64,000 nt of DNA from Escherichia coli (GCF_013315695.1 NZ_CP054356.1); one strand, 5' to 3'; shown: positions 2,978-26,195, counted from the stretch's first letter. The notes: generated by a model not told the origin, from the sequence alone. A program made the numbers and translations.

Positions 2978-2986
2978 TTGTTATCC

Positions 2987-4177: not shown

Positions 4178-4976
4178 CGTTTACATCTCCAAAAAACTGA
4201 ACGATCAGTGGCGCTACAGTCCTCTGATCCAGATTCATTGTTTTTGCTACGTATGAATCGGTATATCCCGCCCATACCCGGTTTTTCAGTCCTATTTGAT
4301 CTGCAACCAATACTGCGTTCTGATACATCGAACCTGTTTCCATTAAGGCCATCCGGTATCCTCTGTAGCGATATTTGAACAAAGCTTTTTCAAAAATAAT
4401 GCAATAGACGAGAGCAAAATGGGGTTTACCAAGACGTTCCGAATCCCCACCGGACAGGCTTCGGTAGAGTGACTGAGTATTACATGTAGCAACAGGTTCC
4501 AGTGCCTGACTTAGCGGCAGGTAGTGATAAACATTAGTTCCTGCCTGCCAGTTTTCTGTATTTTCAGATAATCTGCATAAAAAAACTTCAATCGGGTACA
4601 ATGCCCCCCCAGAAGGATAAGGTCTTCTTACAGAGCCAGGATCAGGTGAGCTGAATGCATTGACTAATAACTTTTCAATAGTACGAATGGAAAGTTTATT
4701 TTTGTCGCAAAAGTTTATTCCTGATGGGAGCCTTTCACGACTAAAATTATGTGATGAGGATATGTTTATTACGGAGCTGAAACCTGGCCTGAAGAGAACT
4801 TCTTTATTTTCAAATTTCTCCAGATGGGCAAGAGGTACCGCGGACACGAAAGTTCGTTCAGCAAATTCGGGGAGGGAAGCAAAGTTACCTCTGACATGAA
4901 AATCTTTAACAATGGCCAGAACTTCAGGATCTGTGTAATGCGTTACTTCCACTAAAGAGAGTTCGTGTTTTGACAT
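4158..4976 (-). CDS. mcbC: Microcin B17 synthetase subunit McbC (FMN-dependent dehydrogenase)
   Basis: 272 aa, operon position; size matches McbC. Confidence 0.85.
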   Translation of the reverse strand: MSKHELSLVEVTHYTDPEVLAIVKDFHVRGNFASLPEFAERTFVSAVPLAHLEKFENKEVLFRPGFSSVINISSSHNFSRERLPSGINFCDKNKLSIRTIEKLLVNAFSSPDPGSVRRPYPSGGALYPIEVFLCRLSENTENWQAGTNVYHYLPLSQALEPVATCNTQSLYRSLSGGDSERLGKPHFALVYCIIFEKALFKYRYRGYRMALMETGSMYQNAVLVADQIGLKNRVWAGYTDSYVAKTMNLDQRTVAPLIVQFFGDVNDDKCLQ

Positions 4977-4977
4977 G

Positions 4978-5865
4978 TTATCTCTCCAGACAGCTGCAAG
5001 CCTGCCAGTGAATTACCGGCTCTTTACATAAAATACAGGTGATTAAATCAGCGCTAACAGATGACATAAAGTTATCGACATGACTTTTAACCAGTGAAGT
5101 ACCTGTCAACTCCTGAAGTCGCCGTTTTATTAAATGATAGCTGAATCCTCTTTCTGATTCGCCTAAAGCCAATGCTGGTAGTGTCATTTGGTATTTTTTC
5201 AGTAACTGAAGTAAGTTTGCCCAGGACATTTCGTTACGTCTGAAGCTTTTTTCTTCCCTGCTCAGCCATCTCTCTATATGACAAAAATGGCAGGGAGTAC
5301 CAAGATCAGGTGAATATACTCCATCTATCCTGAATGACTCCTTTAGGTAGTAGCTTTGGATGAAGGCAACACCAGGGTTACTTTCAAATTTTGAATAGAT
5401 TCTTTTTACAATGTCTGAATGATAGTTTTCGAGATGTAACCAGATTAGTGTTGAATCGCTCACATTAATATTATTATCTTTTATATCAATGATATGAGAA
5501 ACAAAAACACCATCAGATTTCCATTGTTCCCGGGCATTACTGAAAAGATGTGGAACATCGCTTATTATGACTGAGTTTACCCAGAGAGGTGATGTTTTCG
5601 TTTTATTTATCACGCCTGTGGTAATAAGAAACTCTTTGCCCTTGTCTTTATCAATAAGCGATTCGTCCAGTAGTTTATCAAGGAGGTATTCAGAAATAAT
5701 ACCCTGTTTGGATCGTAGGCTTTCGAGTACTTTTTTCATTCCCTCATGTGTAATGTCTACTGAAGAAATGTAGGTAATAAGCAGGGTCTTTGTATTTCTG
5801 GAAATTATCTCAAACGGCAGAATATTGATCATATCTTTTCCTTTTTTAATATCAGGGAGCACCAT
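4978..5865 (-). CDS. mcbB: Microcin B17 synthetase subunit McbB (zinc-binding scaffold)
   Basis: 295 aa, Cys-rich C-terminus (CHFCH..CILC..C.C), directly downstream of mcbA. Confidence 0.85.
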   Translation of the reverse strand: MVLPDIKKGKDMINILPFEIISRNTKTLLITYISSVDITHEGMKKVLESLRSKQGIISEYLLDKLLDESLIDKDKGKEFLITTGVINKTKTSPLWVNSVIISDVPHLFSNAREQWKSDGVFVSHIIDIKDNNINVSDSTLIWLHLENYHSDIVKRIYSKFESNPGVAFIQSYYLKESFRIDGVYSPDLGTPCHFCHIERWLSREEKSFRRNEMSWANLLQLLKKYQMTLPALALGESERGFSYHLIKRRLQELTGTSLVKSHVDNFMSSVSADLITCILCKEPVIHWQACSCLER

Positions 5866-5891
5866 GCTCCCTGAACGGTTAATTCAACGTA

Positions 5892-6101
5892 TCAGATATG
5901 TGAACCACTTCCGCCGCTGCCACCGTTTCCACCACTACAACCGTTGCTGCAACCACCACAACCGCCACCTTGACCACCGCAGCTACCGCCGCCGCCGCCG
6001 CCGCCACCACCACCAATGCCAACACCTAATGGAGACTGGCGTGATAATTTAAGAGCATCAACGGACAAAACTACACCAAATTCACTCGCTTTTAATTCCA
6101 T
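5892..6101 (-). CDS. mcbA: Microcin B17 precursor peptide McbA
   Basis: 69 aa MELKASEFGVVLSVDALKLSRQSPLGVGIGGGGGGGGGGSCGGQGGGCGGCSNGCSGGNGGSGGSGSHI; matches recalled McbA with leader plus Gly/Ser/Cys core. Confidence 0.97.
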   Translation of the reverse strand: MELKASEFGVVLSVDALKLSRQSPLGVGIGGGGGGGGGGSCGGQGGGCGGCSNGCSGGNGGSGGSGSHI

Positions 6102-8809: not shown

Positions 8810-8975
8810 CTCCTTATGGTGTTTTTTTTGGTGTTTGTTTGGGTGTGTTTTGGGTTTTAAGTGGGTTTATTTGTCAAGTTTACCCCATTTTAACTATCAA
8901 TCAATGATTATTTGTCTTGTTTTGGTGTTTTATTGGGTTTGGAGTGGGTTGTTTTTGGGTTTTGTTTGGCGGATA
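8810..8975. promoter_or_regulatory. parC: parC centromere/promoter region (iterated ~11-bp repeats)
   Basis: Directly upstream of parM: multiple direct repeats of GGGTGTGTTTT / GGGTTTTAAGT / GGTGTTTTATT type flanking an AT-rich core. Confidence 0.7.
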
Positions 8976-8980
8976 ACAAA

Positions 8981-9290
8981 AGATGTCGCCGGGCTCCTCT
9001 TTTTACTGCGCCGGCTGACGCGGCGCGGCAGGAACGCTGCCTGTGGTCAGTGTCCCGCGTCCGGCCGGGCACGGGACGGGCGCTTTTACCGCTCCCGGCT
9101 GGCGTCGGTGACAGTGTACGCCAGCCCGTCGCCCTTTTCTGATGAGCGCCCTTCAAGCCGCTTTCGCGGCATAGCCTTGCCGTCAAAAAGACGACGGCTG
9201 CGGTATTCCACGGTCGGCCTGACCCGTTACCGGGCGCGGTGAACAGCCCACAGGCAGCGGGGAACGGGCGCCACAGGGGCGCCCTCCCGA
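8981..9290 (+). repeat. Leading-region structured repeat, family A copy 1 (Frpo/ssi-like candidate ssDNA promoter)
   Basis: About 310 bp nearly identical to 10288-10598; GC-rich with nested inverted repeats; sits directly upstream of an operon start. Confidence 0.6.
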
Positions 9291-9312
9291 TGCTCCTGTG
9301 AGGATAATTCCC

Positions 9313-10239
9313 ATGCCAAACTGGTGCTCGAATCGTATGTATTTTTCTGGTGAACCGGCACAGATCGCTGAGATTAAACGACTGGCCAGCGGTGCAGTCA
9401 CACCGTTTTATCGCCGCGCCACAAATGAAGGTATTCAGCTGTTTCTGGCCGGAAGTGCCGGACTTCTGCAGACCACTGAAGATGTGCGGTTTGAACCATG
9501 CCCCGGACTGACGGCTGCCGGACGTGGTGTTTTATCGCCGGAGAATATCACGTTCACCCGCTGGCTGAAGCACCTGCAGGACGGTGTACTGCTGGATGAG
9601 CAAAACTGCCTGATGCTGCATGAACTCTGGCTGCAGAGCGGTACTGGACAGCGTCGCTGGGAAGGGTTACCGGATGATGTCAGGGAAACTATCACTGTGC
9701 ATTTCACCGCAAAAAGAGGTGACTGGTGTGACATCTGGGGTAACGAGGATGTATCGGTGTGGTGGAACCGTCTGTGTGACAACGTACTGCCGGAAAAAAC
9801 CATGCCGTTTGACCTGCTGACGGTTTTGCCGACCCGCCTGGATATTGAAGTGAATGGCTTTAACGGCGGTGTTCTGAACGGTGTTCCTTCTGCATATCAC
9901 TGGTATACAGAACGGTATGGCGTGAAGTGGCCTTGTGGGTATGACCTGAATATCAGCAGTCAGGGGGAAAACTTCATTCAGGTAGATTTCGACACGCCGT
10001 GGTGTCAGCCGGAAAGCGACGTTGTTGCAGAATTAAGCCGCCGTTTCGGCTGCACGCTGGAGCACTGGTACGCCGAACAGGGCTGCAATTTCTGTGGCTG
10101 GCAGTTGTATGAGCGCGGAGAGCTTGTTGATGTGCTGTGGGGGGAACTGGAATGGTCTTCCCCGACAGATGACGATGAGCTGCCGGAAGTCACCGGACCT
10201 GCGTGGATAGTCGACAATGTGGCGCATTATGGCGGATGA
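9313..10239 (+). CDS. Hypothetical Trp/Cys-rich leading-region protein (about 308 aa)
   Basis: ORF with SD AGGA upstream of ATG 9313 (track gives alternative GTG 9298); motifs PNWCSNRMYF, WCDIWGNEDVSVWWNRLCDN, GCNFCGWQL; no family recognised with confidence. Confidence 0.6.
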   Translation: MPNWCSNRMYFSGEPAQIAEIKRLASGAVTPFYRRATNEGIQLFLAGSAGLLQTTEDVRFEPCPGLTAAGRGVLSPENITFTRWLKHLQDGVLLDEQNCLMLHELWLQSGTGQRRWEGLPDDVRETITVHFTAKRGDWCDIWGNEDVSVWWNRLCDNVLPEKTMPFDLLTVLPTRLDIEVNGFNGGVLNGVPSAYHWYTERYGVKWPCGYDLNISSQGENFIQVDFDTPWCQPESDVVAELSRRFGCTLEHWYAEQGCNFCGWQLYERGELVDVLWGELEWSSPTDDDELPEVTGPAWIVDNVAHYGG

Positions 10240-10287
10240 AGTATGACGGAGACGGGCGGGCAACCGCCCGTTTCTTTTCCGGTAAAG

Positions 10288-10598
10288 GATGTCGCCGTGC
10301 TCCTCTTTTTACTGCGCCGGCTGACGCGGCGCGGCATAAACGCTGCCTGTGGTCAGTGTCCCGCGTCCGGTGGGCACGGGACGGGCGCTTTTACCGCTCC
10401 CGGCTGGCGTCGGTGACAGTGTACGCCAGCCTGTCGCCCTTTTCTGATGAACGCCCTTCAAGCCGCTTTCGCGGCATAGCCTTGCCGTCAGAAAGACGAC
10501 GGCTGCGGTATTCCACGGTCGGCCTGACCCGTTACCGGACGCGGTGAACAGCCCACAGGCAGCGGGGAACGGGCACCACAGGGGTGCCCTCCCGGTGC
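10288..10598 (+). repeat. Leading-region structured repeat, family A copy 2 (Frpo/ssi-like)
   Basis: Near-identical to 8981-9290; ends just before RBS of methyltransferase gene. Confidence 0.6.
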
Positions 10599-10622
10599 CC
10601 TCTGTAAGAGAAGGAGTTTTGT

Positions 10623-11306
10623 ATGTCCCGTTTTGTCCTCGGTAACTGCATCGATGTTATGGCCCGTATTCCTGATAACGCCATTGATTTCATACTGACT
10701 GACCCGCCGTACCTCGTCGGTTTCCGTGACCGTTCCGGGCGCACCATTGCCGGTGATGTTAATGATGACTGGCTGCAACCTGCCAGCAATGAGATGTACC
10801 GCGTACTCAAAAAAGACGCGCTGATGGTCAGCTTCTACGGCTGGAACCGTGTCGATCGCTTTATGGCCGCCTGGAAACGCGCCGGATTCAGCGTGGCAGG
10901 GCACCTCGTGTTCACCAAAAACTACACATCCAAATCTGCGTATGTCGCGTACCGTCACGAATGCGCTTACATCCTGGCAAAGGGCAGTCCGGCCCGGCCC
11001 CGTAACCCTCTGCCGGATGTGCTGGGCTGGAAATATTCAGGCAATCGTCATCACCCGACGGAAAAGCCCGTTACCAGCCTGCAACCACTGATTGAGAGCT
11101 TCACACATCCGAACGCGATTGTGCTGGACCCGTTTGCAGGCAGCGGCTCAACCTGCGTCGCTGCCCTCCAGTCCGGACGCCGGTATATCGGTATCGAGCT
11201 GCTTGAACAGTATCACCGTGCCGGACAGCAACGACTGGCCGCCGTGCAACGGGCCATGCAGCAGGGGGCCGCGAATGATAACTGGTTTGAACCGGAGGCT
11301 GCGTAA
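10623..11306 (+). CDS. Orphan DNA methyltransferase (N6-adenine/N4-cytosine type, beta-class)
   Basis: Motif IV TDPPY precedes motif I DPFAGSGST; 227 aa; typical leading-region orphan MTase. Confidence 0.85.
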   Translation: MSRFVLGNCIDVMARIPDNAIDFILTDPPYLVGFRDRSGRTIAGDVNDDWLQPASNEMYRVLKKDALMVSFYGWNRVDRFMAAWKRAGFSVAGHLVFTKNYTSKSAYVAYRHECAYILAKGSPARPRNPLPDVLGWKYSGNRHHPTEKPVTSLQPLIESFTHPNAIVLDPFAGSGSTCVAALQSGRRYIGIELLEQYHRAGQQRLAAVQRAMQQGAANDNWFEPEAA

Positions 11307-11528
11307 ATGAACTATGCCGGACACGAAAAACTTCGCGCCGACGTGGCGGAGGTGGCCAACACCATGTGTGACCTTCGGGCCAGGCTGAACGATATGGAGC
11401 ATCGCTGTCGCTTTGATTCCGATGTGCTTGTTGAACGCCTGACACGCCAGACGCTGTATCGCGCCAATCGCCTGTTCATGGAGGCGTATACCGAAATTCT
11501 GGAACTGGATTCCTGCTTCAAAGATTGA
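11307..11528 (+). CDS. Hypothetical small protein (73 aa)
   Basis: ATG overlaps methyltransferase stop (TAAATG); operon context only. Confidence 0.5.
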   Translation: MNYAGHEKLRADVAEVANTMCDLRARLNDMEHRCRFDSDVLVERLTRQTLYRANRLFMEAYTEILELDSCFKD

Positions 11529-11541
11529 GAAGGAGACGAGA

Positions 11542-11976
11542 ATGTACGGAACATGCGAAACGCTATGCCGGGAGCTGGCAGCAAAGTATTCGGGAGACAC
11601 GCCACTGATGCTGGTTATCTGGTCCCCGGAAGAAATTCAGGCCCTCTCTGACGGAATGGATATTGCCCTGACCGATCATGAAATCAGGACTGTCCTGGCG
11701 CGCCTGGAGGACATCCCGGAAGACCAGCGGACTGAATCCGGTATTTCTTCCGGCGTGGCGATGGAGATCATCAATAACGTGAGCGAAAACCGCCAGGTGA
11801 CTGTCCCTGCTGAACTGCTGGCGTCCCTGATTCAGACCGCTGAACAGGCATTGTGGAAACGTGAATGGGCCGCCCGGGATCATGGCCTCGCCGTCCCGGA
11901 ATGCGTCACCCGCCGTCAGGCGGTGGTTAATCAGGTCCGCATCCTGCTGAAAAACAACACACACGAAAACGACTGA
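11542..11976 (+). CDS. Hypothetical leading-region protein, paralog of 13679-14098 (possibly DUF1380-type)
   Basis: Good RBS GAGAAGGAG; shares MY(G/C)T start and R-x-VTVPA-x-LL motif with ORF 13679. Confidence 0.6.
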   Translation: MYGTCETLCRELAAKYSGDTPLMLVIWSPEEIQALSDGMDIALTDHEIRTVLARLEDIPEDQRTESGISSGVAMEIINNVSENRQVTVPAELLASLIQTAEQALWKREWAARDHGLAVPECVTRRQAVVNQVRILLKNNTHEND

Positions 11977-12020
11977 TGTTATCGCCGCCTCCGGGCGGCG
12001 ATACAGGGAGTTCATGAATT

Positions 12021-12791
12021 ATGAATGAAATGCTGAATGCACTGATTTATCGCCACGCCAGCAACCTGTTGCTGGCGCAGGGCTGGCCGGAAGAGACGGA
12101 TGTTGACCAGCGTAACCCGAAGTATCCGGGCTGGATCAGCATTTACGTGCGGCTGGATGCGCCCCGGCTGGCGACGTTACTTATCAAGCGTCACGGCGGC
12201 GTACTGCCGCCGCTCCTGGCCTCTGCCATTCAGAAACTGACCGGAACCGGAGCGGAACTTGTTCTGTCCGGCAGTCAGTGGCAGTCGCTGCCGGTACTTC
12301 CGGCAGACGGAACGCAGGTGTCTTTCCCGTATGCCGGTGAGTGGCTGGCAGAGGACGAAATCAGGGCCGTTCTTGGTGCGGTACGCGATGCAGTATGCAG
12401 TGTCAGTTACCAGGTGGCAGAAGATGCGCGGCGTATCCGTGCGGCGCTGACCACCACCGGTCAGACGTTGCTGACCCGCCAGACGCGCCGCTTTCGCCTG
12501 GTGGTGAAGGAAAGCGATCACCCCTGCTGGCTCGATGAAGACGACGAAAACCTGCCCGTGGTGCTCGATGCCATCCTGAACCGGGGCGCTCGTTTTTCGT
12601 CGGTGGAAATGTATCTGGTCAGTGAGTGTGTGGAGCATATCCTGTCCAGTGGGCTGGCCTGCGATATGCTGCGTATACCGGATGAACCGCCCCGCCGCTG
12701 GTTTGACCGTGGTGTTCTGCGGGAGGTGGTCCGGGAAGCCCGGAACGAAATCCGCAGCATGGCGGATGCCCTGGCAAAAATCCGGAAATGA
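12021..12791 (+). CDS. Hypothetical protein (256 aa)
   Basis: RBS AGGGAG 10 nt upstream; codon usage consistent with neighbours; no family recognised. Confidence 0.55.
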
Positions 12792-12847
12792 TGACGCTGG
12801 CGGGGAAAAATCTCCGCCTTTTCCAGTCGGTCCCCGGAAAGAGCAAA

Positions 12848-13200
12848 AGGATGTCGCCGCAGGCTCCTCTTTACCCGGCCATGTGGGGCATGGCCTTGTG
12901 GGTTTTCAGTTATGTGGCCTCAGCGTCGTGTGCGGGCTGTGCCGTGCCTCCATCGTAGCCGGGCTTCTGCGGGCGGGTTGCAAGGTAAGGTGAACCGCTG
13001 CGGTCACCCGGTCCCTCCTTCCCGTCTGCCGTGATTTTCCGGTCGTTCACCCGCTCAGATTTCGCGGTCTCACCCTTCAACTCCCGTCAGCCGTGCGCGT
13101 CAGGCTGCGGCTTCCCTTGCGCCCTTGCAACCCTGCAGGCCCGGCAAAGATGGAGGCACGGCACCGCCCGGTGTCGCGGAATATGTGAACAACGGAGGAA
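12848..13200 (+). repeat. Divergent family-A-related structured element upstream of klcA
   Basis: Begins with the same AAGGATGTCGCCG..GCTCCTCTTT motif as family A copies, then diverges; GC-rich with inverted repeats. Confidence 0.45.
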
Positions 13201-13206
13201 AACATC

Positions 13207-13632
13207 ATGCAATATGCGAAACCTGTCACTCTGAACGTTGAAGAGTGTGACCGTCTCTCCTTTCTGCCTTACCTGTTTGGCAACGATTTTCTGTATGCCG
13301 AGGCGTATGTGTACGCGCTGGCGCAAAAAATGATGCCGGAATATCAGGGAGGCTTCTGGCATTTCATCCGCCTGCCGGACGGTGGCGGTTACATGATGCC
13401 GGATGGCGACCGTTTTCATCTGGTCAACGGTGAAAACTGGTTTGACCGCACTGTGAGTGCTGATGCCGCAGGTATCATCCTGACTTCCCTTGTGATTAAC
13501 CGCCAGTTGTGGCTGTACCACGACAGCGGGGATGCGGGACTGACACACCTTTACCGGATGCGCGATGCGCAGTTGTGGAGCCACATCGAATTTCACCCCG
13601 AATGCAATGCGATTTACGCGGCACTTGACTGA
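13207..13632 (+). CDS. klcA: Antirestriction protein KlcA/ArdB family
   Basis: 141 aa; size, leading-region position and motifs ([21 protein letters not shown]) consistent with recalled KlcA/ArdB. Confidence 0.65.
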
Positions 13633-13678
13633 TTAACGGACGGGGCGGCGATGCCGCCCCTGTAAAGGAGACGAGAAC

Positions 13679-14098
13679 ATGTACTGTACTGTTAAAGAAA
13701 TTATCCGCGAAGTGCTGGATACAGACGTGCCGGACAGTGAATGCGTTTTTGCCGTGGTGCTGACCCGTGGGGATGTGCGTCACATAGCCCAGGACTGGAG
13801 TCTGACAGACGATGAGCTGGAAACCGTCATGCAGCGGCTGGACGATGCCTTTGAGCATGGTGCTGATGTCAGCATTGTTCACGACGTTGTTCGTGAACTG
13901 ATGGAGGAAAAGCGCGTAAACCGTCTTGTAACAGTCCCTGCGGTGCTGCTGGAAAAAGTGATGGTGATGGCTGGTAGTGAAATTTATCGCCTCCATGCTG
14001 TAGGGAGCGAGAACGGGGGCGACGGTGACGCATTTGTCAGGGAAGAACGTGAGATTATGCGGGTGATGCGTCAGGCGCTGGACGGGGAGAATGGGTAA
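13679..14098 (+). CDS. Hypothetical leading-region protein, paralog of 11542-11976
   Basis: RBS AAAGGAGA; shared motifs with ORF 11542 (VTVPAVLLEKV). Confidence 0.6.
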   Translation: MYCTVKEIIREVLDTDVPDSECVFAVVLTRGDVRHIAQDWSLTDDELETVMQRLDDAFEHGADVSIVHDVVRELMEEKRVNRLVTVPAVLLEKVMVMAGSEIYRLHAVGSENGGDGDAFVREEREIMRVMRQALDGENG

Positions 14099-14289
14099 TG
14101 AATATCAGCAAGGAAACCCGCGAAATTCTGCGTAATTACAGGGCCGTGATTAATGCGCGGCGTCGTGAAATGGGGCAGAAACCGCTCACCACCGCGCAGA
14201 TTGTTGATGAAATATGTGATTTTGTGGTGAATCAGCAGGCTGTTTTCCTCGGTGGTCACTACATCCTTCAGGGCAGCAGGCACAGGTGA
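14098..14289 (+). CDS. Hypothetical small protein (63 aa)
   Basis: ATG overlaps previous stop (TAATG); operon context. Confidence 0.45.
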   Translation: MNISKETREILRNYRAVINARRREMGQKPLTTAQIVDEICDFVVNQQAVFLGGHYILQGSRHR

Positions 14290-14490
14290 TACAGGGCAGG
14301 CGGTGGAGGCCGCCTGTCAGCCCGCGCGAAAACCCCTGGCAGGCTGGCGCCTGCCGGAAGGGAAGCGGGCCACGCTGGCGCGTCGCCCGTTACCCTTCCC
14401 GTTTGTGATGTGTCCGGAATGTTTTTTCCTGATGTTATGTTTCTGTGGTTACTGTTCTTCTTCTTCCTCTTCTTTCCGTTCCTCTCCTGT

Positions 14491-15025
14491 TTATGCCTTT
14501 TCCGGGCGTCCCCCTGGCGGGGCGGGCTGTCGTGAACGGAGCCAGCGGAGCTGTCTCCGCCCTGGCGGGCTTCCATCCCTGACGCAAAACCCCGGGTTTG
14601 CAGCGACCGGAACGGTCGCGCCACCCCTGTCGCGCCGTGGCCTGCGCTCCCGGCATCCCGGCAAAAAGACGCCGGGATGTAAGGAGCAACGCCGTTTCGC
14701 AAACCGCGCTTCACGTCGTTGCAGCGGGTCCCTGCTCATTGCCTGCCGGGTGCCACACACCCGTATGAGTCCCTGTCGCCGGGGGCATAGACAGCCACAA
14801 CCTGCCGCACTGACTGTCCAGGGTAAATGAACAGCCCACAAAATTTTTTACCTAAAACCCGGTAAAAAATTTTGCGTTCTGCCCAGGACAGGTGCGTCAG
14901 GCCGTGGCAGTGATGCCCCTTGCGGCGAAGGTTCTCAAACGGGTGAAGTTCATACCACAGGGAATACAGCAGCAGGTTCCCGCGAAACGTCAAAACCGCG
15001 GCTCCCGAAACTCAACGGGTGATGT
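14491..15025 (+). repeat. Leading-region structured repeat, family B copy 1 (Frpo/ssi-like candidate ssDNA promoter)
   Basis: About 530 bp repeated at 17774-18300 and 23191-23740; contains perfect 14-bp inverted repeat CAAAATTTTTTACC/GGTAAAAAATTTTG (about 14839-14874). Confidence 0.6.
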
Positions 15026-15256
15026 TCTTTAAAAATCAGGATTTATTTCAGGCTCCGGCAATACGCATTTATGTGTTCTGTCAGTCATCCGGCTGGCAGG
15101 TAATGAAAACGCAGGAACAGAAGGAGGAAAACACCGGAAAGCGTCAGATGCAGATATGAAAAAAAGCAGGTCAGGGACCTGCTTAATCCACGCCGTAAGA
15201 ATTGTGCGACCAATTTTGACGGCATTGTTAACCAATTTGTCATAAGGAATCCATTT

Positions 15257-15487
15257 ATGACTGTAAGCATTGTTTCACCTTCCGCAGCGGCTGTAAAGCC
15301 CCGCCGTCATCCCCGTTTCAGACGCGAAGACATCCCCGCGCCGGAACTTGACCCCGTGCTGAAAGCCTTCGGGCGACACATTGCCCGGAGTTTTCGCCGG
15401 GGGCGTGGTGTACACATCCCCGCCATGAAAAACACGGCCTTCGGGCAGGTGCTCCGCACACTCGAACTGAAACGCGCTTTTAACTGA
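15257..15487 (+). CDS. Hypothetical small basic protein (76 aa, Arg-rich)
   Basis: RBS AAGGAA; first gene after family B copy 1; RRHPRFRRED..RSFRRGRG. Confidence 0.5.
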   Translation: MTVSIVSPSAAAVKPRRHPRFRREDIPAPELDPVLKAFGRHIARSFRRGRGVHIPAMKNTAFGQVLRTLELKRAFN

Positions 15488-15538
15488 TGAGGTGAGCCGC
15501 CCCGCGAGGGGCGGCAACAGACGGAAGGAGAACATTTT

Positions 15539-16900
15539 ATGACATTAGCAGCAATCACCATGACCGCCCCGGAAGCCGCCAGCCCTGTGCAGATGTACCG
15601 CGCGACCTACTCACCGGATGACAACAAACTGCGCCTGTATGCCGTGTCACGTCTTGACCCGGAGACGTATAAAAAAGTGCATGATGCCGGTTTTCGCTGG
15701 GCACCAGAACAGGCGCTGTTTGTGGCTCCAGCCTGGACACCGGGCCGGGAAGACGTGCTCCTCTCACTTGCCGGAGAGATTGAGGATGAAGACAGCACGC
15801 TCGCTGAACGTCAGGAAGCACGGGCGGAGCGGTTTACCGGATACAGCGGAAAGCGGGCCAGTGAATCCGCACAGGCACTTGATGAAGTGGAAAGACTGGC
15901 CGCGATGATCCCGCCCGGTCAGCCCATTCTTGTGGGGCATCACAGCGAACGCCGCGCCCGTCGTGATGCGCAGCGTATTGAAAACGGCATGAAACGTGCC
16001 GTGATGCTCTTTGAACGTGCGGAATACTGGGAAGAACGTGCGCGGTCGGCACTGCTTCACGCGAAGTATAAAGAACGTCCGGACGTTCGCTGGCGTCGTA
16101 TCAAAAAAATCGAAGCTGATTTGCGCAAGGCTGAAAAGACCATCGCACAGTCGCAGAAATATCTGACGATGTGGCGGGCTGAATCGCTGGATCTGAATAT
16201 GGCAAAACTCATCAGCAGTCATGACCATATCAGCGCCTGTTTCCCGCTGGATACGTATCCGCGCCCGGCAGAAAAAAGCCAGTATGAAGGAAGTCGATCG
16301 TTATGGTCGGCCCTGGATGATGACATCATCACCACGGAGCAGGCCCGCGAAATTGCGATCCGCTGTCATGAACGGCAGATTCAGCATCAGCAACGCTGGG
16401 TTAACCACTATCAGAACCGCCTGATCTATGAGCGTGCCATGCTGGACGAAAGCGGCGGCGTGGTTACCCGGACACAGGATTTTGAGCCGGGCGGACAGGT
16501 TTTCAGCCGGGGCGAGTGGCTGACCATCATCCGCGTGAACAAAAGCAACGGGGCGGTGAGTTCAGTCACAACGCCGAATTACAGTTTTCTCGGGTACAGC
16601 GGCACGATGAAAGTGACGCCCGATCGCATCACGGACTACAAAGCACCATCGGCAGAAGAGGCTGCCGTCGCCAGCCAGGCCGCGAAGCGTCCGCCGGTAG
16701 TCAACTATCCGGGGGAAGGTTTCCGGGAAATGACAAAGGCGCAGTGGGCCGCCCTGCCCCGGGACTGTAAGGCCGTGCGCAGTGTGGCAGAGACAGAAGA
16801 CCACGGGGCATACCGCTACCGCCGCACAATGGACAATAATTTCCGCCTGGTGAATGTGTATATCACCGACATGAAAATCACGGAAATCCCGCAGAAATAA
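15539..16900 (+). CDS. Hypothetical leading-region protein (453 aa)
   Basis: Strong RBS GAAGGAGA; long ORF with Arg/Glu-rich helical central region; no family assigned with confidence. Confidence 0.65.
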   Translation: MTLAAITMTAPEAASPVQMYRATYSPDDNKLRLYAVSRLDPETYKKVHDAGFRWAPEQALFVAPAWTPGREDVLLSLAGEIEDEDSTLAERQEARAERFTGYSGKRASESAQALDEVERLAAMIPPGQPILVGHHSERRARRDAQRIENGMKRAVMLFERAEYWEERARSALLHAKYKERPDVRWRRIKKIEADLRKAEKTIAQSQKYLTMWRAESLDLNMAKLISSHDHISACFPLDTYPRPAEKSQYEGSRSLWSALDDDIITTEQAREIAIRCHERQIQHQQRWVNHYQNRLIYERAMLDESGGVVTRTQDFEPGGQVFSRGEWLTIIRVNKSNGAVSSVTTPNYSFLGYSGTMKVTPDRITDYKAPSAEEAAVASQAAKRPPVVNYPGEGFREMTKAQWAALPRDCKAVRSVAETEDHGAYRYRRTMDNNFRLVNVYITDMKITEIPQK

Positions 16901-16946
16901 GGTATATCCCCCCGGGAAATCCCCGGGGGATGACGGAGATAATGAT

Positions 16947-17510
16947 ATGCACAGTCAGTTAAAAGAACGTATCCGGCTGATGCGCGCAAGGCTGGATAAC
17001 GCCGCGCCGGTTGCTGAAATCCGGGCTGAATCTCAGCTTTTTGTGACTCCTGCCCCGGTCTGTGATCGCCTGGTGACGCTGGCGGAGATCAGCAACCGTG
17101 ATCACATTCTGGAACCCTCTGCCGGCACCGGGGCCATACTGCGGGCGATTCGTCATGTCGCGCCGGGGGCCATGTGTGATGCGGTGGAGATTAACAGCGG
17201 GCTGGTCCGGTATCTGCGGGATAATTTTAACGGTGTCAGGGTTCAGTGTGGCGACTTCATGGAATGGCAGCCGGTGCAGTATTACAGCCGGATTATCATG
17301 AATCCGCCGTTCAGTCACGGGCAGGATATCCGGCATATCCTGCGGGCTTTTTCCCTGTTGCGTCCGGGTGGTGTGCTGGTTGCCGTCTGTCTGAACGGGC
17401 CGCGCCAGCAGGAGAAGCTGTTACCGTTTTCTGATGTCCGCGAGGTGCTGCCGTGCGGCACATTTGCTTATACCCGTGTTCCGACGATGATTATTCGTCT
17501 GCGTGCCTGA
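16947..17510 (+). CDS. Small orphan SAM-dependent DNA methyltransferase (N6-adenine type)
   Basis: Motif I EPSAGTGA and motif IV NPPF; 187 aa; RBS GGAG. Confidence 0.7.
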   Translation: MHSQLKERIRLMRARLDNAAPVAEIRAESQLFVTPAPVCDRLVTLAEISNRDHILEPSAGTGAILRAIRHVAPGAMCDAVEINSGLVRYLRDNFNGVRVQCGDFMEWQPVQYYSRIIMNPPFSHGQDIRHILRAFSLLRPGGVLVAVCLNGPRQQEKLLPFSDVREVLPCGTFAYTRVPTMIIRLRA

Positions 17511-17687: not shown

Positions 17688-17722
17688 TCCTGCTACTGCT
17701 ACTGCTACTGCTACTGCTACTG
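17688..17722. repeat. Tandem hexanucleotide repeat (TGCTAC)n, about 5 units
   Basis: CTGCTACTGCTACTGCTACTGCTACTGCTACTG in pyrimidine-rich tract preceding family B copy 2. Confidence 0.8.
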
Positions 17723-17773
17723 TTCTTCTTTTTTCTGCTGCTCTGATTACTGTCTGTTTTGTTGTTCTCCTGC

Positions 17774-18300
17774 TTATGCCTTTTCCGGGCGTCCCCCTGG
17801 CGGGGCGGGCTGTCGTGAACGGAGCCAGCGGAGCTGTCTCCGCCCTGGCGGGCTTCCATCCCTGACGCAAAAACCCGGGTTTGCAGCGACCGGAACGGTC
17901 GCGCCACCCTTGTCGCGCCGTGGCCTGCGCTCCCGGCATCCCGGCAAAAGACGCCGGGATGTAAGGAGCAACGCTGTTTCGCAAACCGCGCTTCACGTCG
18001 TTGCGGCGGGTCCCTGCCCGTTGTTCTGTCCGGTGCCATTCACCTGTTTAAGCCCCTGTCGCCGGGGGCTGATACAGCCACAACCTGCCGCACTGACTGT
18101 CCAGGGTAAATGAACAGCCCACAAAATTTTTTACCCAAAACCCGGTAAAAAATTTTGCGTTCTGCCCAGGACAGGTGCGTCAGGCCGTGGCAGTGATGCC
18201 CCATGCGGCGAAGGTTCTCAAACAGGTGATGGTGAATACCGGAGGGAACAAAAGGCAGGTCCCCGCAAAACGTCAAAACCGCGGCTCCCGAAACTCAACA
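17774..18300 (+). repeat. Leading-region structured repeat, family B copy 2 (Frpo/ssi-like), upstream of ssb
   Basis: Near-identical to 14491-15025 and 23191-23740. Confidence 0.6.
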
Positions 18301-18340
18301 GATGATGGGGGCTGAAAACATCAACAGAAGGAGACACATC

Positions 18341-18868
18341 ATGGCAGTTCGTGGCATTAACAAGGTCATTCTTGTCGGTCGTCTGGGAAAAGATCCGGAA
18401 GTCCGTTACATCCCCAACGGGGGCGCAGTGGCAAACCTGCAGGTGGCCACGTCAGAAACCTGGCGCGACAAACAGACGGGGGAAATGAAGGAGCAGACGG
18501 AATGGCACCGCGTGGTGCTGTTCGGCAAGCTCGCGGAAGTGGCAGGTGAATATCTGCGTAAGGGGGCGCAGGTCTACATTGAAGGCCAGCTTCGCACCCG
18601 TAGCTGGGAAGATAACGGTATTACCCGTTACGTCACCGAAATCCTTGTTAAAACCACGGGCACCATGCAGATGCTGGGGAGTGCACCACAGCAGAACGCT
18701 CAGGTGCAACCGCAGCCTCAGCAGAATGGTCAGTCACAGAGTGCTGACGCGACGAAAAAAGGGAGCGCGAAAACGAAAGGCCGTGGACGTAAGGCTGCGC
18801 AGCCGGAGCCTCAGCCGCAACCACCGGAGGGGGAGGATTACGGGTTTTCAGACGATATCCCGTTCTGA
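18341..18868 (+). CDS. ssb: Plasmid single-stranded DNA-binding protein SSB
   Basis: [23 protein letters not shown].. OB-fold N-terminus and acidic C-terminal tail DDIPF; track ORF extended to upstream ATG 18302. Confidence 0.95.
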
Positions 18869-18886: not shown

Positions 18887-19159
<273 letters not shown>

Positions 19160-19219
19160 GAGAGGTGCCGGACGGGGATCACGTCCGGCAGACATTAACT
19201 ACACAATAAGGGGATAGTC

Positions 19220-21184
19220 ATGTCAGTAACAAAGTCTGAACCAAAATCTACCCGTAAAGCAAGCCGTAAACCTGCAAAAACGCAGGAAACTGTCCTGTCT
19301 GCCCTGCTGGCGCAGACGGAGGAAGTGAGCGTGCCGCTGGCCTCGCTGATTAAGTCACCACTGAATGTGCGCACGGTGCCGTATTCTGCGGAGTCCGTCA
19401 GCGAACTGGCTGATTCCATTAAGGGGGTCGGCCTGCTGCAGAATCTGGTTGTTCATGCCCTGCCAGGTGACCGCCACGGTGTCGCCGCAGGTGGTCGCCG
19501 ACTGGCAGCACTCAACATGCTGGCAGAGCGTGGCATCATTCCGGCTGACTGGCCTGTCCGCGTGAAAATTATTCCGCAGGAACTGGCGACGGCCGCATCG
19601 ATGACCGAGAACGGTCATCGTCGGGATATGCACCCAGCCGAACAGATTGCCGGATTCTGTGCAATGGCGCAGGAAGGCAAAACACCTGCACAAATCGGTG
19701 ATTTGCTGGGCTATTCACCCCGCCACGTTCAGCGAATGCTGAAACTGGCTGACCTTGCGCCTGTCATCCTCGATGCGCTGGCAGAAGACCTCATCACCAC
19801 CGAGCACTGTCAGGCGCTGGCGCTGGAGAACGACACCGCGCGTCAGGTGCAGGTGTTTGAAGCCGCCTGTCAGTCGGGATGGGGCGGTAAACCGGAAGTA
19901 CAGACCATTCGTCGTCTGGTGACCGAAAGTGAAGTGGCGGTGGCAGGGAACAGTAAATTCCGCTTCGTGGGGGCTGATGCCTTCTCGCCAGATGAACTGC
20001 GCACTGACCTGTTCAGCGACGACGAGGGTGGCTATGTGGACTGCGTGGCGCTCGATGCCGCCCTGCTGGAAAAACTCCAGGCTGTTGCTGAACACCTTCG
20101 GGAAGCCGAAGGCTGGGGATGGTGCGCCGGACGCATGGAGCCTGTCGGTGAGTGCCGTGAGGATGCCGGAACATACCGCTGTCTGCCGGAGCCGGAAGCG
20201 GTGCTGACGGAGGCGGAAGAAGAACGTCTGAACGAACTGATGACGCGTTACGACGCGCTGGAAAACCAGTGTGAGGAATCTGACCTGCTGGAAGCAGAAA
20301 TGAAGCTGATGCGCTGCATGGCGAAGGTCAGGGCGTGGACGCCGGAGATGCGTGCCGGAAGCGGTGTGGTGGTGTCCTGGCGTTATGGCAACGTGTGTGT
20401 CCAGCGTGGTGTGCAGTTGCGCAGCGAGGATGATGCGGCTGACGACGCTGACCGCACGGAACAGGTGCAGGAGAAAGCGCCCGTGGAGGAAATCAGTCTG
20501 CCACTGCTGACGAAAATGTCTTCCGAACGCACGCTGGCAGTCCAGGCAGCACTGATGCAGCAACCGGACAAATCCCTGGCACTGCTGGCATGGACGCTCT
20601 GCCTGAATGTGTTTGGCAGCGGAGCGTACAGTAAACCAGCACAAATCAGCCTGGAATGTAAACATTATTCGCTGACCAGCGATGCGCCATCGGGGAAGGA
20701 CGGTGCCGCATTCCTGGCGCTGATGGCAGAAAAAGCCCGTCTTGCAGCCCTGTTACCGGAGGGATGGTCACGGGATATGACGACGTTCCTGTCACTCAGC
20801 CAGGAGGTACTGTTATCCCTGCTCAGTTTCTGCACCGCGTGCAGCATCCACGGCGTTCAGACCCGCGAGCATGGTCACACGTCACGCAGTCCGCTGGACT
20901 CGCTGGAGAGCGCTATCGGATTCCACATGCGCGACTGGTGGCAGCCGACGAAAGCAAACTTCTTCGGACACCTGCAAAAGCCGCAGATTATCGATGCCCT
21001 GAATGATGCCGGACTGTCCGGTGCTGCGCGGGACGCGGAGAAAATGAAGAAAGGCGATGCCGCTGAACATGCAGAGTTCCACATGAAAGACAACCGCTGG
21101 GTGCCTGGCTGGATGTGTACACCACGTCCACAGGCAGAGACGGAAACCACGGAGTACCGTGACGACCAGGCAGAAGCCGCCTGA
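19220..21184 (+). CDS. ParB-like nuclease domain protein (leading-region ParB/Srx homolog)
   Basis: 654 aa; N-terminal ParB-type region (..GLLQNLVVH.. GGRRLAALN..); conserved position between ssb and psiB. Confidence 0.7.
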
Positions 21185-22872: not shown

Positions 22873-23190
22873 CAGGGCTGATGCTGGTCTGACTGCACTG
22901 AAGCGCCTTTATAAAGGGGCTGCTGGTTCGCCGGTGGCCCCTTTCTCCTTGCTGGCATTGTACGGGCATGAACAACCAGACTGCCAGGAAGGCCGTTTCC
23001 CTCCGGGAACGGGGATGAACGTGCGCCTGCGGCGCCCGTTCTTTTCCCCCGCCTTCTCTGTTTATGACTTACCAGAAATCACATCACCTTCCCTTTGATT
23101 ATTCTCTTTTTCCTCCTGCTCTGACTCTGATTACTGCTCTGACTCTGATTACTGCTGCCCTGATTATTGTCTGTTTTGTTGTTCTCCTGC

Positions 23191-23740
23191 TTATGCCTTT
23201 TCCGGGCGTCCCCCTGGCGGGGCGGGCTGTCGTGAACGGAGCCAGCGAAGCTGTCTCCGCCCTGGCGGGCTTCCATCCCTGACGCAAAACCCCCGGCTTG
23301 CAGCGACTGTTCCGGTCGCGCCGCCTCTGTCGCGCCGTGGCCTGCGCTCCTGGCATCCCGGCAAAAGGCCGCCGGGATGTAAGGCGCAACGCCGTTTCGC
23401 AAACCGCGCTTCACGTCGTTGCGGCGGGTCCCTGCCCGTTGTTGTGTCCGGTGCCATTCACCTGTTTAAGCCCTGTCGCCGGGGCTGATAGTTGATACAA
23501 CCTGCCGCACTGACTGTCCGGTAAAATGAACAGCCCACAAAATTTTTTACCCAAAACCCGGTAAAAATTTTGCGTTCTGCTCCAGACAGGTGCGTCAGGC
23601 CGTGGCAGGTGATGCCCCTGCGGCGAAGGTTCTCAAACAGGTGATGGTGAATACCGGAGGAACAAAAGGCAGGTCCCCGCAAAACGTCAAAACCGCGGCT
23701 CCCGAAACTCAACAGATGATGGGGGCTGAAAACATCAGAT
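23191..23740 (+). repeat. Leading-region structured repeat, family B copy 3 (Frpo/ssi-like)
   Basis: Near-identical to copies 1 and 2; 3' end shares the ssb leader sequence up to about 10 nt before the RBS. Confidence 0.6.
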
Positions 23741-23752: not shown

Positions 23753-24049
23753 ATGAGCGCATTTTCTTTTAACACCACTTATCAGCCAACAGGCGATCAG
23801 CAGAAAGACGCAATCGCACAAATCGGGATCATGCAGAATCGTGCTGTTCAGGCAAATCTTGCATATCAGAGCTGCCGGGATTCTGGTGCACTCTTTAAGG
23901 TGCTCCACCAGGTCAATAATGAGCTGCATGACTTACTGGATAGCCTGGAGAATCATACTCCTCTTGTCAGAAAAAACGCTGATGAGTTGATCGCGCTGTT
24001 ACTGCTTTTCACTCGGCAGGTTGGTCAGTCCCGAACTGACCTGATTTGA
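23753..24049 (+). CDS. Hypothetical protein (98 aa)
   Basis: RBS AGGAGG; first gene after family B copy 3. Confidence 0.5.
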   Translation: MSAFSFNTTYQPTGDQQKDAIAQIGIMQNRAVQANLAYQSCRDSGALFKVLHQVNNELHDLLDSLENHTPLVRKNADELIALLLLFTRQVGQSRTDLI

Positions 24050-25789: not shown

Positions 25790-26195
25790 TTCCACCTCTG
25801 GTGACTTTATCCGTAAATAATTTAACCTACTCCACAAAAAGGCTCAACAGGTTGGTGGTTCTCACCACCAAAAGCACCACACCCCACGCAAAAACAATTT
25901 TTTGCTGATTTTTCTTTATAAATAGAGTGTTATGAAAAATTAGTTTCTCTTACTCTCTTTATGATATTTAAAAAAGCGGTGTCGGCGCGGCTACAACAAC
26001 GCGCCGACACCGCTTTGTAGGGGTGGTACTGACTATTTTTATAAAAAACATCATTTTATATTAGGGGCGCTGCTAGCGGCGCGGTGTGTTTTTTTATAGG
26101 ATACCGCTAGGGGCGCTGCTAGCGGTGCGTCCCTGTTTGTATTATGAATTTTAGTGTTCCGAAATTAACTTTATTTTATGTTCAAAAAAGGTAAT
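25790..26195 (-). other. oriT: Origin of transfer oriT (F/R100-type); nic predicted on minus strand near 25878/25879
   Basis: Plus strand carries reverse complement of the F nic region (..CCAAAAGCACC|ACACCCCACGC..), adjacent inverted repeat GGTGGTTCTCACCACC, A/T-rich tracts, hairpin GCGGTGTCGGCGCG..CGCGCCGACACCGC, repeated AGGGGCGCTGCTAGCGG motifs (TraM-site candidates). Confidence 0.8.

Follow-up and report, generated by a model that had tools for sequence, protein, structure and literature searches.

Hairpin-led, probable anti-defence modules in an F-like plasmid leading region: an M.EcoGIX orthologue and a putative split DUF3560-methyltransferase

The window (the whole 64,000-nucleotide stretch of Escherichia coli DNA analysed here) holds two methyltransferase genes in a locus that is overall ordinary and largely known, its sole new lead being the reading of two neighbouring genes, ydbA and ydcA, as a split enzyme. 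The region is probably an F-like plasmid's usual anti-defence leading region, assembled from hairpin-led cassettes, an explanation that would embrace both an orthologue of the characterised methyltransferase M.EcoGIX and a split YdbA-YdcA enzyme. Judged from sequence, ydbA-ydcA is best read as one split DUF3560-methyltransferase, because in 45 of 125 distant representatives of the YdcA relatives the YdcA domain follows a full YdbA homologue within a single fused protein; in many phages and other elements the putative enzyme is a single polypeptide. The features on which the argument draws are as follows.

8978-9293, minus strand: hairpin element of about 315 nt, first copy; candidate class-3-type single-strand promoter upstream of the DUF1281 gene (repeat and inverted arms)
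9298-10239, plus strand: DUF1281 (YccB/YubB-like) leading-region gene (ORF; DUF1281 annotation in a 99.9% identical plasmid)
10284-10598, minus strand: hairpin element immediately 5' of the 227-aa methylase gene (homologue of the pESBL class-3 single-strand DNA promoter)
10623-11306, plus strand: 227-aa beta-class N6/N4 DNA methyltransferase, M.EcoGIX orthologue (Pfam, NCBIfam, pESBL-EA11 identity)
11307-12791, plus strand: three small ORFs after the methylase gene, same module: 73 aa; DUF1380, 144 aa; 256 aa (ORFs and annotation)
12847-13177, minus strand: hairpin element upstream of klcA; candidate class-2-like single-strand promoter (similarity to Frpo' 4, inverted arms)
13207-13632, plus strand: KlcA/ArdB-type antirestriction gene, between the two methylase modules ('antirestriction protein' in a 99.9% identical plasmid)
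14438-15024, minus strand: single-strand promoter element of the Frpo/ssiD type (class 1), 5' of the ydbA-ydcA module (ssiD identity, repeat, fold)
15257-15487, plus strand: 76-aa ORF, first in the ydbA-ydcA module (ORF; annotated as a hypothetical protein)
15539-16900, plus strand: YdbA, a DUF3560 protein of 453 aa that would be the non-catalytic half of a split methyltransferase (Pfam, fusion homology)
16947-17510, plus strand: YdcA, 187 aa, bare adenine-N6-type methyltransferase catalytic domain with FxTP, EPSAGTG and NPPF (motifs, profiles, model)
17721-18311, minus strand: another Frpo/ssiD-type element, lying 5' of ssb and forming the right-hand repeat at the edge of the ydbA-ydcA cassette (ssiD identity, repeat)
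18302-18868, plus strand: plasmid ssb at the head of the next module, which comprises ssb, DUF905, parB-like, psiB and psiA (ORF and annotation)
25871-25890, minus strand: F-type nic site of oriT (one exact match)

The window belongs to an IncF conjugative plasmid, with a 99.9% identical match to E. coli p5505-2 over 30 kb. Compared with NZ_CP095528.1, identity is 99.9% at 1-30303 and 95-99.9% across the remainder, about 0.7 kb (48878-49576) being unaligned. The F-type nic sequence (TGCGTGGGGTGT/GGTGCTTT), which we take to be the consensus of F-like plasmids, occurs once in the window, at 25871-25890 on the minus strand, against a chance expectation of 0. This makes the minus strand the one that is transferred and puts the leading region at coordinates below approximately 25880; the position and strand of nic therefore place both methylase genes in the leading region, as a first-pass annotation had claimed, with the transferred strand as their template. 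The distance to nic is approximately 8.4 kb for the 187-aa gene and 14.6 kb for the 227-aa gene, and traM, traJ, traY and the genes that follow lie on the opposite side of nic from both.

Leading-region anti-defence islands with Frpo-type single-strand promoters have been described previously (Samuel et al. 2024, PMC11541004; PMC12672017), and the window agrees with those of Samuel et al. in gene content and order, all genes being oriented towards oriT. Orphan methyltransferases are a prominent enriched function of these islands (PMC11541004), and that study already catalogues both methylase families of the window as leading-region methyltransferases. Placed by annotation and size, and not by a sequence test, the 227-aa gene fits family 8 (K07319), ydcA fits family 26 (K07317/K00561) and ydbA fits family 28 (DUF3560, 'YdbA').

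The 227-aa protein is of the M.EcoGIX kind already characterised, a beta-class N6/N4 DNA methyltransferase. Both ORFs of the first-pass annotation were recovered on the plus strand with precisely the coordinates given there, and the motif order that it had reported for this one holds, with DPPY (motif IV) at residues 27-30 of the translation and FAGSGST (motif I) at 171-177. Pfam PF01555 (N6_N4_Mtase) matches residues 21-201 with E 2.9e-37, covering model positions 1-219 of 221, and NCBIfam PRK13699 scores 488.8 bits (cut-off 244; E 2e-147). Furthermore, the protein is identical at 219 of its 227 residues (96%) to the equally long DNA methylase of the pESBL-EA11 leading region, which we equate with M.EcoGIX because the annotation of that leading region shows no other such gene. 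Window positions 9297-14359 are collinear with the pESBL leading region at 93%, and the order of the small ORFs after the methylase gene (11307-12791) is also annotated in pESBL; we expect these three ORFs to be co-transcribed with the methylase gene. The ydbA-ydcA cassette is not present in pESBL.

M.EcoGIX of pESBL (E. coli O104:H4) and M.BceJIII are plasmid-borne, single-strand-specific m6A methyltransferases (Fomenkov et al. 2020, PMC7736820), and M.EcoGIX is a promiscuous enzyme that modifies SAY and protects from restriction (PMC7736820). The 227-aa gene shares with it the beta-class motif order, an upstream DUF1281 gene and a downstream small ORF, DUF1380 and klcA. The two differ by eight amino-acid substitutions and in plasmid type (IncF as opposed to IncI1). 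By analogy with the published work on M.EcoGIX, the orthologue would be made in the recipient while the entering strand is still single-stranded, and would place m6A at many SAY sites of that strand, thereby blunting restriction. In an ST131 strain bearing an IncF plasmid, a survey of the methylome counted the M.EcoGIX homologue as the sole plasmid methyltransferase, which would speak against DNA methylation by YdbA-YdcA if that plasmid carries ydcA.

Both methylase modules are headed by their own single-strand-promoter-like hairpin on the transferred strand, in keeping with the separate modules described in the first-pass annotation. The element at 10284-10598 is nearly identical to the sequence 5' of the pESBL-EA11 methylase gene, and its folding energy on the minus (transferred) strand is -96.4 kcal/mol (z = -6.2); the transcription start of the pESBL class-3 single-strand promoter driving M.EcoGIX has been mapped by 5' RACE (PMC12672017). 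The element at 8978-9293 is a 97% direct repeat of it, has long inverted arms (9035-9064 / 9230-9259) and can likewise be aligned to the pESBL sequence 5' of M.EcoGIX. Upstream of klcA, the element at 12847-13177 shows 78% identity to the suspected Frpo' 4 of Samuel 2024, with inverted arms (12933-12964 / 13139-13170) that are 91% complementary. The ydbA-ydcA cassette is flanked by a direct repeat (14438-15024 / 17721-18307, spacing 3283); 14680-15013 (minus strand) is 80% identical to F plasmid ssiD and 17962-18311 is 87% identical to F ssiD. The upstream copy folds at -103.5 kcal/mol on the minus strand (z = -10.0) and has the features of a class 1 Frpo/ssi element, namely ssiD homology, a long imperfect hairpin and the right orientation on the transferred strand. 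In all, the leading region of the window holds three ssiD/Frpo homologues and one 'Frpo' 4'-like element, and the leading hairpin of each cassette could serve as a single-strand DNA promoter.

The architecture of the 187-aa protein, YdcA, is distinct from that of the 227-aa enzyme, again as first annotated. Motif I (EPSAGTG, residues 56-62) precedes NPPF (119-122), and with FxTP (motif X) at its head the order is X, I, IV, gamma-like where the other is beta. Pfam MTS matches YdcA with E 4.9e-6, while the Pfam DNA-methylase models do not match (N6_Mtase E 0.65); its best solved relative by sequence is the catalytic domain of M.TaqI (2.4e-6), and its PHROG matches reach 9e-32. The matches of the 227-aa protein and the PHROG matches of YdcA are far past chance, and the Pfam and PDB sequence matches of YdcA are weaker. 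Among 59 homologues, P57, G60, G62, N119, P121, D127 and H130 are invariant, F32, T34, P35, E56, S58 and A59 are nearly so, and E81, P120 and F122 are kept in 90% or more. YdcA is thus predicted to be an active enzyme core of the TaqI/EcoKI/DarB type, with SAM-binding and (N)PPF amino-methylating parts intact. In the predicted model (pLDDT 89) there is no target-recognition domain, the protein stopping at residue 187 directly after the last strand of the core fold, and no HsdS-like gene is annotated near ydcA in the near-identical plasmid.

It is this bare core that the upstream gene would complete. The fusion proteins have an N-terminal part that is homologous to the full length of YdbA (E as low as 1e-128), although DUF3560 matches residues 89-206 of YdbA only (E 1.1e-36). 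In a distant set of 125 YdcA-relative representatives, from which close copies and fragments of the window's own gene were left out, the 45 YdbA-then-methyltransferase fusions span 485-1453 aa and a further 21 carry a partial YdbA; Pfam finds DUF3560 plus MTS on the fusion proteins. In an unrelated contig the split pair is again adjacent, with a 4-nt overlap and an upstream ORF that matches YdbA at 3.8e-44, whereas in the window a gap of 46 nt separates the genes. The ydcA-type and ydbA-type families of Samuel 2024 are near-equal in size, at 1957 and 1913 members (PMC11541004). In the available parts of PMC11541004 and PMC12672017, DUF3560 is listed as uncharacterised, and DUF3560 and the small methyltransferase are not treated as one split enzyme. 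The YdbA model (pLDDT 91) has no match among solved structures and no recognisable DNA-binding fold, and YdbA matches none of the known recognition domains.

We propose that YdbA and YdcA form a complex, in which YdbA would most likely provide substrate binding or targeting and YdcA the catalytic core that has no recognition domain of its own. The most likely job of the pair would be low-specificity adenine methylation of incoming plasmid DNA, a second antirestriction layer whose presumed outcome is protection from restriction. A literature search found no methylation data or experimental report on YdbA or YdcA. More broadly, we tentatively suggest, at somewhat less than even chances, that YdbA-YdcA and the DUF3560-methyltransferase fusions of phages and plasmids are a distinct, uncharacterised kind of early-acting modification enzyme, in which a large helical/beta-rich partner targets a core without recognition domain, and which is made from the incoming single strand and marks invading DNA broadly. 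If true, this would be a second route of antirestriction methylation, mechanistically unlike M.EcoGIX; the more novel variant would have host RNA or protein as its target.

Two other accounts of the genes themselves must be weighed against a split enzyme. The pair of methylases could be two independent, self-sufficient, sequence-specific orphan DNA methyltransferases, each serving against a different recipient restriction specificity, an idea to which the two architectures, the two separate promoter-led modules and the lack of an endonuclease lend some weight. It is common for a plasmid to carry several orphan methyltransferases, and some of these enzymes protect against specific systems (PMC11602122), which provides a precedent. 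Re-inspection through the annotation of NZ_CP095528.1 bears out the earlier statement that no endonuclease is adjacent: none is annotated adjoining either methylase gene or anywhere in its window-matching stretches. NCBIfam models give no match for the DUF1281 gene or for four of the ORFs between the methylase genes, bar one far-below-cut-off match for 13679-14098. Orphan status therefore stands insofar as there is no restriction partner, but the 227-aa enzyme is not new, and the promiscuity and single-strand specificity of M.EcoGIX, to which it is 96% identical, do not sit well with a site-specific role (PMC7736820); nor can it stand for one restriction specificity when M.EcoGIX is promiscuous at SAY (PMC7736820). 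The 187-aa protein was likewise mistaken for a self-contained methyltransferase: it has no recognition domain, its chain ends right after the catalytic fold, and it appears to be the catalytic half of an enzyme with YdbA. Its relatives are mostly fused to or beside YdbA, and self-sufficiency or site-specificity is therefore unlikely. We regard two independent, site-specific enzymes as distinctly improbable. Protection against more than one restriction specificity, which the first-pass annotation had suggested, is plausible but not required, because low-specificity enzymes already cover broadly. Alternatively, ydcA, with ydbA, might be a decaying, non-functional remnant, left when a stop codon interrupted a fusion gene; fused proteins are frequent elsewhere, truncated or chimeric copies of each gene are numerous in the protein databases, and pESBL does without the cassette. 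Decay is very hard to reconcile with the retention of every catalytic and SAM-binding position of YdcA, with the ribosome-binding site of its own (GGAG, 9 nt before the ATG) that ydcA possesses, and with the intact 187-aa and 453-aa forms each being represented by clusters with thousands of members. The split arrangement, moreover, recurs in the unrelated contig and is kept in at least 2212 database plasmids, and we give a remnant hardly any credence.

The substrate of the split enzyme is likely to be DNA. M.TaqI is the best solved relative of YdcA by sequence and by profile (5.4e-11), with the highest identity among the fold matches (31% over 150 aligned residues), and the FxTP motif is typical of EcoKI/TaqI-like enzymes (PMC5512222). 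We nevertheless only infer that YdcA acts on DNA at all, as by profile and fold the rRNA adenine methyltransferases resemble it almost as closely as M.TaqI does, with Dim1, Erm and TrmN almost equal. The failure of the Pfam DNA-methylase models to match YdcA and the lack of a recognisable DNA-binding fold in YdbA also speak against DNA. The pair might instead methylate RNA, such as the amino group of an adenine or guanine in rRNA or tRNA, or else a recipient protein, so that the new host is reprogrammed directly after entry. The presence of Dim1/KsgA, Erm, TrmN, Trm11 and METTL5 among the best fold and profile matches would favour this, as would an NCBIfam list headed by Erm/KsgA and a Pfam match, MTS, that is a RsmC/RlmG/HemK-type domain. 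The NPPF-type motif of YdcA also occurs in glutamine methyltransferases and in those that form m2G in RNA. A precedent comes from YfjB, a different leading-region protein, whose reprogramming of the host is the subject of a recent preprint (PMC13370423). We consider an RNA or protein target unlikely, as the NCBIfam scores fall far under the cut-offs (Erm 34 against 212 bits, KsgA 26.9 against 171 bits) and the model lacks the C-terminal RNA-binding domain of the Erm/KsgA type. Far stronger than the NCBIfam matches are those to methylase domains of phage polyvalent proteins (9e-32), by description EcoKI/TaqI-like DNA adenine methylases; the top family matches (PHROG, E 9e-32 to 1e-11; three of 14 named DNA methyltransferase) fall on domains inside giant phage proteins. 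Among the phage hits are also a 'DarB-like antirestriction' protein and a 2741-aa protein adjoining a tailspike. The YdcA family profile also aligns with the methylase domain of P1 DarB (28.7 bits, residues 90-274, LPxGTF...GT motif included), and one DUF3560-methyltransferase fusion additionally bears a DNA polymerase III beta-clamp domain.

Set beside the rRNA adenine-N6 dimethyltransferases KsgA/Dim1 and Erm, YdcA scores far below their cut-offs and is missing their RNA-binding domain, and its genomic setting and fusion partners point to DNA rather than to a role of that type. With M.TaqI, a gamma-class N6-adenine DNA methyltransferase, YdcA shares the X-I-IV order and the NPPF/NPPY catalytic loop, but M.TaqI has a C-terminal DNA-recognition domain of approximately 180 residues and YdcA has none. 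It resembles the methylase module found in P1 DarB and in the polyvalent proteins of phages and plasmids (Iyer et al. 2017, PMC5512222) in its EcoKI/TaqI-like catalytic domain and an N-terminal helix capped by the TP motif, and the carriers of both alike need early antirestriction. The DarB-type module, however, has an N-terminal LPD36 and a C-terminal SNF2/SF2 helicase, in place of which YdbA-YdcA has a DUF3560 partner; Pfam on YdbA, YdcA and 18 relatives gives DUF3560 alone for YdbA and nothing but methyltransferase models for YdcA and the relatives. Finally, YdbA-YdcA would be expressed in the recipient from the incoming strand, whereas DarB is, as far as known, delivered as protein.

In E. 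coli and Klebsiella, antibiotic resistance is carried mainly by IncF plasmids, whose leading region determines whether transfer survives the defences of the recipient. Positions 1-30303 of the window match the E. coli plasmid p5505-2 (NZ_CP095528.1; IncFIA/IncFIC, MOBF, conjugative) at 99.9% identity, while most of the remainder aligns to the p5505-2 tra region at 95-99.9%, ending near repA. The F-type nic sequence, the consensus of F-like plasmids, has a single match, at 25871-25890 (minus strand), where none is expected by chance. The minus strand is therefore the transferred strand and the leading region everything below approximately 25.9 kb, entering in descending coordinates. Leading-region genes on the plus strand have the transferred strand as their template, the layout previously reported for such genes (PMC7736820). 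The p5505-2 annotation gives the gene order:

microcin B17 operon, parM/parR, DUF1281, hypothetical ORF
DNA methylase, small ORF, DUF1380, hypothetical ORF
antirestriction (KlcA-type), DUF1380, small ORF
small ORF, DUF3560, class I SAM-dependent methyltransferase
ssb, DUF905, ParB-like, psiB, (psiA), hok, DUF932, lytic transglycosylase, traM onward

The first-pass annotation had described two orphan DNA methyltransferases of different architecture in this region. Both reading frames are present, at 10623-11306 and 16947-17510 (both plus strand), and the motif orders hold: in the 227-aa protein motif IV (DPPY, 27-30) precedes motif I (FAGSGST, 171-177), and in the 187-aa protein, YdcA, motif I (EPSAGTG, 56-62) is followed by NPPF (119-122). 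The absence of a partner endonuclease also stood up to re-inspection, with none annotated in the p5505-2 stretches that align with the window, where the only annotated nuclease is a thermonuclease-family gene near finO. The 8.3-kb stretch around both methylases matches at least 5000 database plasmids, mostly from Escherichia, Klebsiella and Salmonella, and at least 2212 contain 80% or more of it as one piece. As it was put, the finding is already known, since both families have been catalogued, the arrangement occurs in thousands of sequenced plasmids, and M.EcoGIX homologues in IncF plasmids have been explicitly mentioned (PMC7736820; PMC4659465).

The 227-aa protein matches Pfam N6_N4_Mtase end to end (2.9e-37), scores twice the cut-off of NCBIfam PRK13699, and has solved relatives that are beta-class enzymes, e.g. 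CcrM, M.RsrI and DpnA. We compared it with pESBL-EA11, the plasmid of the O104:H4 outbreak strain, whose leading region has the same gene order and a sole annotated DNA methylase, also of 227 aa, which we take to be M.EcoGIX. The two proteins are identical at 219 of 227 positions, and the 340 nt 5' of the gene are almost base-for-base alike. Judged by these comparisons, the 227-aa gene is an M.EcoGIX orthologue. M.EcoGIX promiscuously methylates adenine (m6A) at SAY on single strands and aids pESBL establishment against restriction in an orientation-dependent manner, and its homologues are abundant in IncI1 and IncF plasmids (Fomenkov et al., PMC7736820). The hairpin ahead of M.EcoGIX contains a transcription start, mapped by 5' RACE in a 2025 study that named the hairpin a class-3 single-strand DNA promoter (PMC12672017). 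This methylase is already understood.

YdcA is a different matter. Word-index homologue searches gave nothing beyond close enterobacterial relatives and assembly chimeras; 582-aa 'fusions' of 99% identity from these searches were singletons, and were discarded as artefacts. An exhaustive search of 1.84 billion cluster representatives returned 9908 relatives at E ≤0.001, and among the best 150 of these are many long proteins in which the match is C-terminal. We compared the 135 new representatives in this best 150 with the leading-region proteins of the window, 125 remaining after removal of 10 that were fragments or near copies of ydcA itself. In 45 of the 125 (fusions of 485-1453 aa), homology over the N-terminal 300-450 residues takes in essentially all of YdbA (E down to 1e-128), the 453-aa DUF3560 protein encoded directly upstream of ydcA. 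Partial YdbA is found in 21, other N-terminal extensions in 23, and 36 are short stand-alone proteins. Precomputed Pfam hits on the fusions are DUF3560 plus MTS, and of 18 YdcA relatives scanned with Pfam, seven contain DUF3560. One stand-alone relative is immediately preceded by a gene, cut by the contig end, that is again YdbA-like (3.8e-44) and shares 4 nt with the start of the methyltransferase. By Rosetta-stone reasoning, we conclude that ydbA-ydcA would be a split version of one enzyme, its products forming a putative complex.

A gap of 46 nt separates ydbA from ydcA in the window, and a ydcA ribosome-binding site (GGAG) lies 9 nt before the ATG. Between the ydbA stop and this site lies a G+C-rich hairpin without a T-run (16908-16929; CCCCCGGG-AAAT-CCCCGGGGG), which may affect the relative expression of YdbA and YdcA. 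The Samuel et al. catalogue (PMC11541004) lists 1913 members for the DUF3560/'YdbA' family and 1957 for the one to which ydcA would belong, labelled adenine-specific DNA methyltransferase (K07317) or 23S rRNA dimethyltransferase (K00561). [quoted passage not shown] The split-enzyme reading is a modest, testable lead that will not surprise specialists. It concerns a methyltransferase found in roughly two thousand catalogued elements, and implies that ydbA and ydcA should be cloned together. Dependence of YdcA on the upstream DUF3560 gene, if true, would explain why expression of the small gene alone, or motif-based methylome surveys, might miss it. Separately, a plasmid DUF3560 gene and its SAM-dependent methyltransferase neighbour are reportedly matched by chromosomal CRISPR spacers in Klebsiella pneumoniae, the former by three (PMC6965323).

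Among 59 homologues, the YdcA residues for SAM binding and catalysis are invariant or nearly so (FxTP 32-35, E56-G62, E81, D103-F104, NPPF 119-122), as are D127, H130, G151-Q154 and L168-P169, and on these conservation grounds we rejected the idea that ydcA is a pseudogene or remnant. Its AlphaFold model (pLDDT 89) is a complete class I fold with no residues beyond it. The substrate is less easily read. YdcA matches only generic small methyltransferase models in Pfam (MTS, 4.9e-6; RrnaAD, 3.5e-4), with no significant match to N6_Mtase, and a fold search matched DNA and RNA methyltransferases without separating them. RNA, or protein, would be an alternative substrate to DNA. When the family profile was compared with all PDB sequences, M.TaqI came top (5e-11), with Dim1 second (7e-10). 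Much stronger matches (9e-32 to approximately 1e-11) fall on internal domains in phage protein families that are 1259-3925 positions long, and 3 of the 14 PHROG hits of YdcA bear the name DNA methyltransferase. Among cultured phages, a 2741-aa protein adjoining the tailspike of Shewanella phage X14 and a 1803-aa protein of F116-like Pseudomonas phages contain the domain, and it also occurs within a protein annotated 'DarB-like antirestriction'. Iyer et al. (PMC5512222) place methylase domains of just this kind, from 'polyvalent proteins', in a mostly monophyletic EcoKI/TaqI-like group of DNA adenine methylases whose N-terminal helix has a TP motif as its cap. The P1 DarB methylase domain (residues 90-274) aligns with the YdcA family profile, sharing LPxGTF...GT near the C terminus. 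Finally, in a 1018-aa metagenomic representative, a DNA polymerase III beta-clamp C-terminal domain (Pfam 2e-6; PHROG 'processivity factor' 5e-18) precedes DUF3560 and the methyltransferase, which recalls the connection to the replication machinery proposed for M.EcoGIX. Because the M.TaqI match, the phage domains, the Iyer et al. group, the DarB alignment and the beta-clamp fusion point the same way, we favour DNA adenine, with moderate confidence, as the most likely YdbA-YdcA target.

The contexts of the fused form that we examined are phage-like: one fusion adjoins a small terminase gene, a second lies among KilA-N/ANT, HNH and LPD29 genes, and a third is in a prophage with portal, TerL, DUF932 and N6_N4_Mtase genes. 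Phages and plasmid leading regions therefore share one gene pool. At GCA_000426245.1 (AUEZ01000004.1 54006-74306), a prophage combines a 766-aa DUF3560-methyltransferase fusion with DUF932 and N6_N4_Mtase genes, a trio of families identical to that of the plasmid leading region. A 227-aa gene that follows a fusion on another contig (L015) has no homologue among the plus-strand ORFs of 60 aa or more between 8800 and 26000 in the window, the 227-aa methylase included. In pESBL-EA11 (L011), a DUF4942 gene that is absent from the window adjoins oriT (18947-19795). Since a phage protein annotated DUF4942 matches the YdcA-type methylase domain, DUF4942 may add one more methyltransferase-like family to the leading-region repertoire.

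Five hairpin-led cassettes were delimited in the leading region from its repeats and from a comparison to published Frpo/ssi sequences, with these elements:

8978-9293, minus strand: class-3-type hairpin copy, 97% identical to 10284-10598, in front of DUF1281
10284-10598, minus strand: class-3-type hairpin copy, window counterpart of the hairpin upstream of M.EcoGIX
12847-13177, minus strand: hairpin in front of klcA, sharing 78% identity with 'Frpo' 4' (Samuel et al.)
14680-15013 (ssiD-matching core), minus strand: F ssiD/Frpo homologue in front of ydbA-ydcA
17962-18311 (ssiD-matching core), minus strand: F ssiD/Frpo homologue
23113-23737 (core 23380-23725), minus strand: F ssiD/Frpo homologue, 84% identical to F ssiD

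The transferred strand of 10284-10598 folds at -96 kcal/mol (z = -6.2), and the hairpin in front of ydbA-ydcA reaches z = -10. Given the copy at 8978-9293, expression from the entering strand may extend to DUF1281. The Frpo copy closest to oriT, at 23113-23737, precedes a 98-aa ORF (23753-24049), which is followed by DUF932 (24160-24981). Direct repeats of approximately 590 nt (14438-15024 and 17721-18307, spacing 3283) bound the ydbA-ydcA cassette, which is wholly absent from pESBL, where both flanks are collinear with the window. It is therefore plausible that the cassette can be gained or lost by recombination between promoter copies.

An annotated 'hypothetical protein' CDS of reference plasmids (WP_001310011.1; window 10236-10547, plus strand) lies almost wholly within hairpin 10284-10598, a similar chance ORF occurs in the copy at 8978-9293, and the CDS is probably not a real gene. 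Simple repeats just ahead of Frpo copies, (CTGCTA)x5 at ~17690-17722 and a TTC/CTC-rich tract at ~14455-14480 (within 17688-17722 and 14440-14480), may vary in length between plasmids. Elsewhere, a low-G+C (37-42%) microcin B17 operon (mcbA-G, ~957-6101, minus strand), recognised by homology to the annotated reference plasmid, lies upstream of parMR. G/T-rich repeats with 11-12-nt spacing at 8811-8973, directly upstream of parM (minus strand), resemble the iterons of a ParMRC parC centromere. The reference plasmid, near-identical elsewhere, gives no alignment for approximately 0.7 kb around traS/traT (48877-49577) and just 95% identity in the adjoining traG segment, a divergence that fits a different entry-exclusion allele.
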